46,314 nt of DNA. Source: a virus (taxonomy: Duplodnaviria; Heunggongvirae; Uroviricota; Caudoviricetes). This document shows, one piece after another, positions 32,132 to 32,765 of the stretch; position 1 is the first letter of the stretch, and the number at the start of each line of letters is the position of its first letter. Both the position numbers and the translations under genes were made by a program. The DNA is taken from the IMG/VR virus record IMGVR_UViG_2909303794_000006. The stretch is one strand, 5' to 3'. Below the pieces are notes generated by a model. The model ran no database searches. It was not told the DNA's origin and was given only the letters and a program-made list of their open reading frames with translations.

Positions 32132-32404
32132 TTACTCCTTCACTTTGACTTCAGCGGCTATGATGGCTTTCATCACTGCAATTACCGTTTTGTCCTTCCC
32201 ATCCTCATGCCCCATCGCATAAGCGCCTTCTTCGCCACCTTTCCAAAAGTTGTCATTCGATTCGGGCCAGTCGATATCCAGTTCAATAGCTGCCCTTGAT
32301 GCCTGCCATATCACCCAGGCAAACTCTTTTAACCCGTCGTCTTCCGTGAACGGGCTTTTGTATTTTGACCACCACTCTTCGAATTGTCGGTAGCTATCGT
32401 TCAT
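32132..32404 (-). CDS. hypothetical acidic protein (W-rich), unknown function
   Basis: ORF with ATGA coupling to the upstream mini-ORF; start at Met6. Confidence 0.6.
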   Translation of the reverse strand: MNDSYRQFEEWWSKYKSPFTEDDGLKEFAWVIWQASRAAIELDIDWPESNDNFWKGGEEGAYAMGHEDGKDKTVIAVMKAIIAAEVKVKE

Positions 32405-32478
32405 TTCCCTCTCCCCCAAATAAAAAGGCCTGCGATTACCAGCAGACCTGTTACAAGCTCAGTGATGTAGATGGTCAT
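32401..32478 (-). CDS. possible 25-aa hydrophobic mini-protein (MTIYITELVTGLLVIAGLFIWGRGK)
   Basis: ATGA overlaps at both ends link it to the neighbouring genes; single predicted TM helix. Confidence 0.35.
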   Translation of the reverse strand: MTIYITELVTGLLVIAGLFIWGRGK

Positions 32479-32765
32479 CTTTTAACTCCATATACCGCCA
32501 ATACCCGTTTCATCGCGGCACTCTGGCGACACTCCTTAAAAATCAGGTTCGTGCTCATCTTTCCTTCCCGTTCTTCCTTGGTAGCAAACCGGTAATACAC
32601 CGTTCGCCAGACCTTACCTTCGATAACCAGAAGACCTGCCCGTGCCATTTTAGCCGCGGCCTGATTTATGCTGGTTACTGTTGCGCCTGTTAGCGCGGCA
32701 ACGTCCGGCGCACAGAAGCTATTATGCGTCCCCAGGTAATGAATAATTGCCTCTTTGCCCGTCAT
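32475..32765 (-). CDS. hypothetical protein, possible winged-helix fold, unknown function
   Basis: 96-aa ORF in the early-right operon between P and ninB. Confidence 0.6.
   Translation of the reverse strand: MTGKEAIIHYLGTHNSFCAPDVAALTGATVTSINQAAAKMARAGLLVIEGKVWRTVYYRFATKEEREGKMSTNLIFKECRQSAAMKRVLAVYGVKR

Follow-up and report, generated by a model that had tools for sequence, protein, structure and literature searches.

Ren, a ninA reading frame over the tR2 terminator and an L0091-family accessory gene between P and ninB of a lambda-type prophage

Three small open reading frames (ORFs) lie between the replication gene P and ninB in the virus record IMGVR_UViG_2909303794_000006 (IMG/VR; Caudoviricetes), all of them on the minus strand of a stretch of 46,314 nt that we analyzed as a whole and refer to as the window. 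We conclude with good confidence that they form the usual transition from the replication genes to the nin region in an early-right operon of lambda type, in the order P, ren, ninA with the tR2 terminator, an accessory gene, and a ninB split by an insertion sequence (IS). An earlier note on this DNA had described the same three ORFs, which ORF listing and direct reading both recover, and had taken them for two uncharacterized genes and a hydrophobic mini-ORF occupying the slot of lambda ren. Judged by sequence comparison, the first ORF (96 aa) is Ren itself and the last (90 aa) is a member of the 933W L0091/PHROG 343 family; the 25-codon ORF between them is the ninA reading frame laid over the tR2 terminator. 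Our result is mainly an annotation correction, and apart from what the 90-aa family does and what ninA translation is for, everything had already been described.

Identification of ren

Comparison of the 96-aa ORF with lambda ren gave identity at 94 of 96 amino acids and 289 of 291 nucleotides. The protein also matched PHROG 142, 'Ren-like exclusion protein' (E=3.6e-42), and an identical copy in NZ_CP148268 was named 'protein ren' by the Prokaryotic Genome Annotation Pipeline (PGAP). We therefore rejected the replacement of ren by an uncharacterized gene, since ren is intact at its slot. The earlier suggestion that the 96-aa product is a winged-helix protein agrees with weak helix-turn-helix matches (MarR-type PHROG 1687 at 1e-10, with Crp and ArsR types below threshold), but the gene is not an uncharacterized one and these matches add nothing beyond existing knowledge of Ren, which is an exclusion-escape function in established lambda genetics.

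A scan of species genomes anchored on Ren mostly yielded what looks like lambda DNA contaminating unrelated assemblies, neither real prophages nor diversity. The near-identical copies of lambda ren lay on contigs of ∼48 kb or on tiny contigs of low coverage in assemblies of Pseudomonas, Bradyrhizobium, Oceanobacillus, Shewanella, Streptomyces, Paenibacillus and others.

The ninA reading frame and the tR2 terminator

The 25-codon ORF (MTIYITELVTGLLVIAGLFIWGRGK) matched PHROG 5907 (Table 1). It belongs with the ninA ORFs of lambdoid phages, which have 25-32 codons, start MT(I/L)YITE and stand right after the last replication gene or ren. The element is not new and is annotated together with a terminator at the counterpart site in several phage records: 933W lists orf4 as 'homologous to ninA gene' with a rho-independent terminator within it, P22 lists ninA and a terminator 'similar to phage lambda', Sf6 lists gp45 as 'similar to phage 21 NinA' along with tR2 and the boundary sequence bsq6, and Nil2 lists both ninA and tR2. 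These are the same element as in lambda and the window. The VT1-Sakai counterpart is H0046, and ninA is also annotated in HK620. In lambda, an ORF of 26 codons (MTIYITELITGLLVIAGLFIWGRGKS) occupies the 73 nt that separate ren from ninB and overlaps each of these genes by an ATGA; the lambda RefSeq record leaves it unannotated. By tblastn the ninA peptide was found in 421 phage records, 401 of them with at least 80% coverage. Of 5426 complete E. coli genomes, 1971 contain the ninA/tR2 DNA unit, and PGAP leaves it without any annotation there. That both PGAP and the lambda RefSeq leave this stretch of ∼70 nt blank invites its rediscovery.

A consensus scan placed an intrinsic terminator with an 8-bp stem and an 8-nt loop inside ninA (TTTTTATTT), a canonical structure that the earlier note had missed. 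Its stem-loop, at 32449-32426, reads AGGTCTGC-TGGTAATC-GCAGGCCT and is followed by the T-tract TTTTATTTGG (scan string TTTTATTT) to 32416. There is a single difference from lambda tR2, a C>T change in the stem that results in a G.U pair. Rfam at gathering thresholds, run over the whole window, gave no family at the ren-ninA-90-aa locus, and a promoter scan gave no promoter-like site near ninA on either strand.

We noted some variation in tR2 among the terminator-anchored records described below. The G.U stem variant of the window is rare (1 of 110 records), and a loop variant, CTG>CAG, which gives NinA L13Q, was present in 8 of 110. One viral contig contains the 3' half-hairpin of tR2 and the ninB start twice, 228 nt apart, each copy being joined within the loop to other sequence and one of them to internal ninB sequence; this doubling is either a tandem duplication or an assembly artifact.

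The ninA ORF can be divided into a conserved 5' part (nt 1-29), the hairpin and T-tract (nt 30-61), and the purine run GGGGGAGAGGG (nt 62-72), which supplies the codons W-G-R-G and is also the Shine-Dalgarno (SD) sequence of the next gene, whose start codon overlaps the ninA stop. The same run precedes ninB in lambda, as well as the downstream genes of phages that lack a ninA start. Read in the ninA frame, the stem and T-tract encode G-L-L-V-I-A-G-L-F-I-W, whereas in the remaining frames there is a stop or a string of polar residues, and it is for this reason that the NinA peptide is hydrophobic. What the earlier note described as a hydrophobic single-helix peptide thus owes its 'helix' for the most part to the stem and T-tract of the terminator.

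Direct reading of the sequence confirmed that the ORFs are chained by ATGA stop/start overlaps at P/ren (32762-32765), at ren/ninA and at ninA/90-aa gene (32401-32404); the 90-aa gene is separated from ninB by the spacer TAAcgATG, with GGAG just upstream. ATGA chaining has been described as typical of nin regions (PMC8022706), and PMC8022706 and PMC4824070 credit Kroger & Hobom 1982 with ninA as well as with this chaining of nin genes. The coordinates of these and other features are collected in Table 1.

Table 1. Features of the window at the junction of the replication genes and the nin region, and elsewhere in the prophage.
Feature	Coordinates	Strand	Basis or remark
P (replication protein P, helicase loader; last replication gene)	32762..33463	-	Pfam Phage_lambda_P E=8.8e-62; PHROG 109 E=9e-99
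ren (96 aa)	32475..32765	-	PHROG 142; near-identity to lambda ren
ninA (25 codons, spans tR2)	32401..32478	-	PHROG 5907 E=1.2e-18; annotated counterparts in other phages
tR2 intrinsic terminator, hairpin and T-tract	32416..32449	-	terminator scan; comparison with lambda tR2
Purine run GGGGGAGAGGG (Shine-Dalgarno region)	32407..32417	-	sequence reading
90-aa acidic, Trp-rich protein, from ATG	32132..32404	-	PHROG 343 E=2.1e-24
ninB 5' part, ∼74 codons (Orf recombination mediator)	31907..32129	-	Pfam NinB E=7e-28
IS21-family element, ends approximate	29952..31906	+	PHROG transposase and DnaC-like (IstB-type) matches
istA	30042..31064	+	within IS21-family element
istB	31061..31843	+	within IS21-family element
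ninB 3' part	29760..29951	-	PHROG 72 NinB, profile positions 86-147, E=7e-17
N-like antitermination protein	36010..36282	+	PHROG 271 'anti-termination protein N-like' E=5.6e-33; arginine-rich motif in translation
sieB-type superinfection-exclusion gene	36299..36880	-	PHROG 1301
ral restriction-alleviation gene, lambda-like	37094..37294	+	
cIII thermoregulator element	37905..37963		IS3-family element right after
Second IS (IS3 family)	38073..39286	+	Rfam ALIL frameshift pseudoknot 38354-38470

Conservation and translation of ninA

For comparison of the ninA frame among phages we chose anchors outside the part being tested, and used two sets of viral contigs, one anchored on Ren (80 loci) and one anchored on the terminator (120 matches, 104 of them usable). 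All 80 Ren-anchored loci retain the ninA ORF. Its 3' end comes in three forms, which match different downstream genes by means of overlaps (ATGA, GTGA or GTGnnTGA). In the 104 contigs of the terminator-anchored set, ninA follows seven unrelated kinds of gene end (Ren, two types of DnaB-like helicase and four more); each of them has its stop on or beside the ninA ATG, which a GGAG-like run precedes by 6-10 nt. On the other side the neighbors comprise no fewer than 10 different genes, and in ∼100 of the 104 contigs the start of the downstream gene and the stop of ninA overlap by 4 or 8 nt. The chaining that the earlier note had pointed out is thus real, and because the overlapped start and stop of the mini-ORF recur next to many unrelated neighbors, we consider that it exceeds chance.

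Many of the genes that follow ninA have GTG starts with an 8-nt overlap with the ninA stop. Several, in terminator-anchored contigs, begin with strongly hydrophobic N-termini (VAELIFSALRIL, VADWQIPIIILA, VAEFMLVAFKCV, MVNWMLAAIKCI), which makes for a group of small putative membrane proteins immediately behind tR2.

Allelic changes in the 27 nt of the 5' part that lie outside the terminator were 8 synonymous and 3 conservative non-synonymous (I/V, I/M, T/A) in the ninA frame, against synonymous/non-synonymous counts of 5/6 and 1/10 in the other two frames. With 26% of changes expected to be synonymous, a rough binomial test gave P ∼0.0015, a value drawn from few and non-independent changes, which counts against leaning on it heavily. 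We also found three hairpin classes that differ in stem and loop; all have their terminator at the same site, and no frame but that of ninA stays open throughout. The second class, typified by HK97 gp56, combines the same first ten codons with an unrelated stem-loop (GGGGCTAT..GTAGCCCC) and T-tract through which the frame is open. In the third and more diverged class, MTLYITE(V/L)(L/F)(A/S)GLSATVALFYW..., the peptide is kept at ∼70% nucleotide identity in the 5' part and with another loop. This third class was seen in three contigs, in one of which the ORF extends well into the next gene.

The start of ninA has been examined with reporters by Li et al. (PMC4824070), who found the NinA initiation site active in the natural sequence upstream of tR2. 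This start halved the expression of the upstream reporter, and expression was restored when the NinA ribosome binding site (RBS) or AUG was mutated; the authors invoke non-stop translation on tR2-terminated RNA and trans-translation. In the same study ninA translation reduced the efficiency of tR2 by only ∼10%. Translation of the mini-ORF, which the earlier note had argued from the overlaps, is supported by the conserved frame, start and overlaps together with this reporter-active start, and we conclude that ninA is probably translated.

Interpretation of the ninA/tR2 unit

Lambda tR2 stops transcription when N is lacking and lets polymerase through when N is present, read-through in lambda being governed by N. 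Comparison with other phages and the literature suggest how the elements of the window, whose arrangement and identity we observed directly, may work together. Without N, transcripts from pR would stop at tR2, inside ninA and ∼16 nt before the ninA stop; with an N-like antiterminator, such as the one encoded in the window, polymerase would pass tR2. Having finished ren, ribosomes would then start anew at the overlapping ATGA and translate ninA through the sequence of the terminator; at the second ATGA they would pass on to the gene after ninA. By this mechanism ninA would serve as a translated bridging ORF that keeps a 'chain of interlinked genes' translationally coupled across a terminator. 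On tR2-terminated RNA, ninA would become a non-stop message, which the reporter study ties to lower upstream expression (PMC4824070).

It would be a further step to hold that ninA is a selected device, which ties the expression of O, P and ren to N status and couples the nin genes, or alternatively a peptide with a membrane function of its own. We consider this step speculative and unlikely. If ninA is a selected device, tR2-terminated transcripts would be marked as non-stop and hence become targets of tmRNA and RNase R, while the same ORF would couple translation into the nin genes on read-through RNA. If either the device or the membrane peptide is correct, the design would be a widespread regulatory one, given three independent hairpin classes and a unit found in about one third of complete E. 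coli genomes. The candidate roles of a translated ORF over tR2, namely coupling bridge, trigger of non-stop decay and membrane peptide, are general ones and not specific to the window.

Several observations weigh against a functional reading of ninA. The frame is kept across lambdoid phages, as the earlier note would have expected, but in some its start is absent or the frame disrupted, and ninA is dispensable. Phages of the HK022 and Stx2a_WGPS6 type have tR2 directly after an HNH endonuclease gene and have lost the 5' part of ninA; the TAA of the HNH gene lies exactly at the base of the tR2 hairpin, and hairpin, T-tract and SD sequence are retained. Among the HK97-type records, 5 of ∼112 have a 1-nt deletion after ATGAC, with which the ORF stops after 7 codons, and one has a nonsense codon (TAG at codon 7). 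The terminator is intact in all of these frameshifted and nonsense alleles. The HK97-type class is also richer in non-synonymous changes (I3V, I5V, L8I, T2A, T10I). In the window the tR2 hairpin is weaker than in lambda (ΔG -12.4 versus -15.1 kcal/mol), and the prophage carries two IS insertions and may be defective. Finally, lambda without the whole nin region still forms plaques (PMC10695390).

The HNH-tR2 arrangement was seen in five further contigs besides HK022 and Stx2a_WGPS6. For this class we rejected the reading that the upstream gene is fused through tR2: its true frame closes with TAA at the foot of the hairpin, and the long open frame lies in another phase.

A rival reading is that the mini-ORF is a by-product, the stretch being conserved as tR2, as the RBS of the next gene and as a recombination 'boundary sequence', with a frame that has no selected role and a peptide that is irrelevant. 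About two thirds of the ninA ORF are accounted for by the hairpin, T-tract and SD run, and tR2 and the SD sequence persist without a ninA start in the HNH class. The frameshift and nonsense alleles, the dispensability of the nin region (PMC10695390) and the Sf6 label of boundary sequence bsq6 point the same way, as does the fact that neither PGAP nor the lambda RefSeq calls ninA a gene; by a rough estimate, moreover, an open frame of 25 codons alone would be present by chance ∼30% of the time. A by-product does not, however, fit well with the SD-like runs and overlapped stops of seven unrelated upstream genes and the overlapped starts of at least 10 downstream genes, or with a synonymous bias specific to the ninA frame. 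Nor does it fit with the retention of MTLYITE..G...ALFYW in a diverged class with ∼70% nucleotide identity in its 5' part and a different loop, with the ninA frame alone being open through all three hairpin classes, or with a NinA start that is active in a reporter (PMC4824070). On balance we regard a pure by-product as somewhat unlikely.

We think it improbable that NinA is a free-standing membrane micro-protein (for example a small toxin, or one that modulates a membrane protein) to which the overlap with the terminator is secondary. The first 21 residues are hydrophobic in the three hairpin classes (GRAVY 1.2-1.9) and are followed by a basic or polar tail, but in the ninA frame it is the stem and T-tract that impose this hydrophobic core, and the C-terminal tail is freely replaced to suit each downstream start. 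Conservative N-terminal substitutions, the bias toward synonymous changes and the persistence of the peptide family across diverged DNA would suit a membrane peptide; against this, NinA has no homology to any characterized family in Pfam, NCBIfam or PADLOC, and the ORF is lost in some phages. As to the marks of type I toxin-like small hydrophobic peptides, the scan gave it no promoter of its own, no antisense partner was seen (no dedicated antisense search was made), and the ORF is embedded in the operon by its overlaps.

The 90-aa acidic protein

The product of the gene after ninA is acidic and W-rich, as the earlier note had described it (pI 4.59, 6 Trp), and it matched the profile of PHROG 343, a family of unknown function, over its full length. 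There are 84 close homologs in Escherichia, Shigella, Salmonella and other enterobacteria, all annotated as 'hypothetical' and all carrying a precomputed PF26207 tag. The PF26207 model is not in the Pfam copy that we scanned, and scans of this local copy, NCBIfam and PADLOC returned nothing for either the 90-aa protein or NinA. A profile search with the 90-aa family returned 611 cluster representatives at E<=1e-3, and all 78 of the 78 relatives sampled belong to PHROG 343. Members of this family have a conserved N-terminal helix, M-x-ES-RKQFE-W, followed by a hypervariable insert, and a conserved core, W-QASRAAIE-(I/L), together with the C-terminal helix AIRAAGIKVKE. A few PHROG 343 relatives have an N-terminal extension of ∼36-70 residues with a zinc-ribbon motif, CxxCxGxG...CxC.

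An AlphaFold (AF2) model of the 90-aa protein consists of four helices and is moderately confident (pLDDT 72.7, pTM 0.47). Fold comparison of this model found no neighbor, a search of PDB sequences with the family profile gave no match, and a literature search for L0091 found no paper mentioning it. We regard the 90-aa gene as a non-essential accessory gene of the nin region that belongs to a widespread, uncharacterized phage family. Because the product is small, acidic and helical, with an N-terminal half that is mosaic, our best guess is that it would act by binding another protein, although its model is of only moderate confidence and has no fold neighbors. The role of the PHROG 343/L0091 family is a general question and not one specific to the window.

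It is very improbable that the slot holds defense or counter-defense cargo, as the earlier note had proposed, in particular with the 90-aa protein as an anti-defense or exclusion factor: although Ren is itself an exclusion-escape function, the 90-aa protein is small and acidic (like some anti-restriction proteins) and of a mosaic, phage-restricted family, and the prophage carries ral and a sieB-like gene elsewhere, there was no PADLOC match at E<=1 for Ren, NinA or the 90-aa protein, the last has no sequence or fold link to known anti-defense proteins, its gene is an in-operon nin-region gene without a promoter or terminator of its own, and ren has not been displaced.

Prophage context

The window contains a lambda-type prophage in which cI-like, cro, cII, O, P, ren, nin and Q-like genes lie to one side, with the N-like, sieB-like, ral and cIII genes to the other. 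ninB is cut after approximately codon 74 by the IS21-family element, leaving an 80-aa ORF that matches positions 1-76 of the 131 in the NinB profile, and the insertion is flanked by a direct duplication of up to 9 nt (AGGTTTTGT). NZ_CP148268 has an otherwise identical stretch of P, ren, ninA, 90-aa gene and ninB without the IS, and its identity to the window ends at 31906. Since the second, IS3-family element interrupts the early-left operon, the prophage is probably defective.

Comparison with known systems

Leader-peptide attenuators of the trp and pyrBI type share with ninA a short translated ORF over or next to an intrinsic terminator, so that the position of the ribosome could influence the hairpin. 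They differ in that ninA has neither an alternative antiterminator hairpin nor regulatory codons. We rejected an attenuator of this kind on the grounds that there is no alternative hairpin and that the measured effect of ninA translation on tR2 is only ∼10% (PMC4824070).

HK97 gp56 and HK544 gp48 are ninA-like ORFs of 32 aa in which the first 10 codons are identical, the terminator is in the same place, and the frame is open through the terminator and overlaps the next gene. They depart from the window in their stem and loop, which are wholly unlike (GGGGCTAT...GTAGCCCC), in a polar tail of greater length, and in more frequent alleles that are non-synonymous or disrupted. Homologs of the 90-aa protein include 933W L0091, VT1-Sakai H0045, Nil2 ORF29 and Sf6 gp48, the closest homologs being ∼85-94% identical. 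As in the window, an L0091-type gene follows directly after ninA in 933W, Sakai and Nil2; the gene of the window starts with ATG, not with GTG as do the 933W L0091-type relatives, and it abuts ninB, whereas 933W has two more small genes between L0091 and ninB.

Lambda Ren corresponds to that of the window in sequence, in its position directly after P and in its stop/start overlap with P, and differs by two conservative substitutions (R63K, V74I). Escape from Rex exclusion may be expected of the window Ren solely by way of this near-identity. Unlike lambda, the prophage of the window has no rexAB beside its repressor in the ORF lists, and Ren would consequently act here only against other lysogens. 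The ninA/tR2 unit of lambda has in common with that of the window the 5' part of ∼30 nt, the hairpin and T-tract, the position after ren and the ATGA overlaps on both sides. The window peptide differs from lambda NinA by I9V and by the absence of the final Ser; the 3' end of ninA joins the 90-aa gene in the window and ninB in lambda, which gives 25 codons in the former and 26 in the latter.

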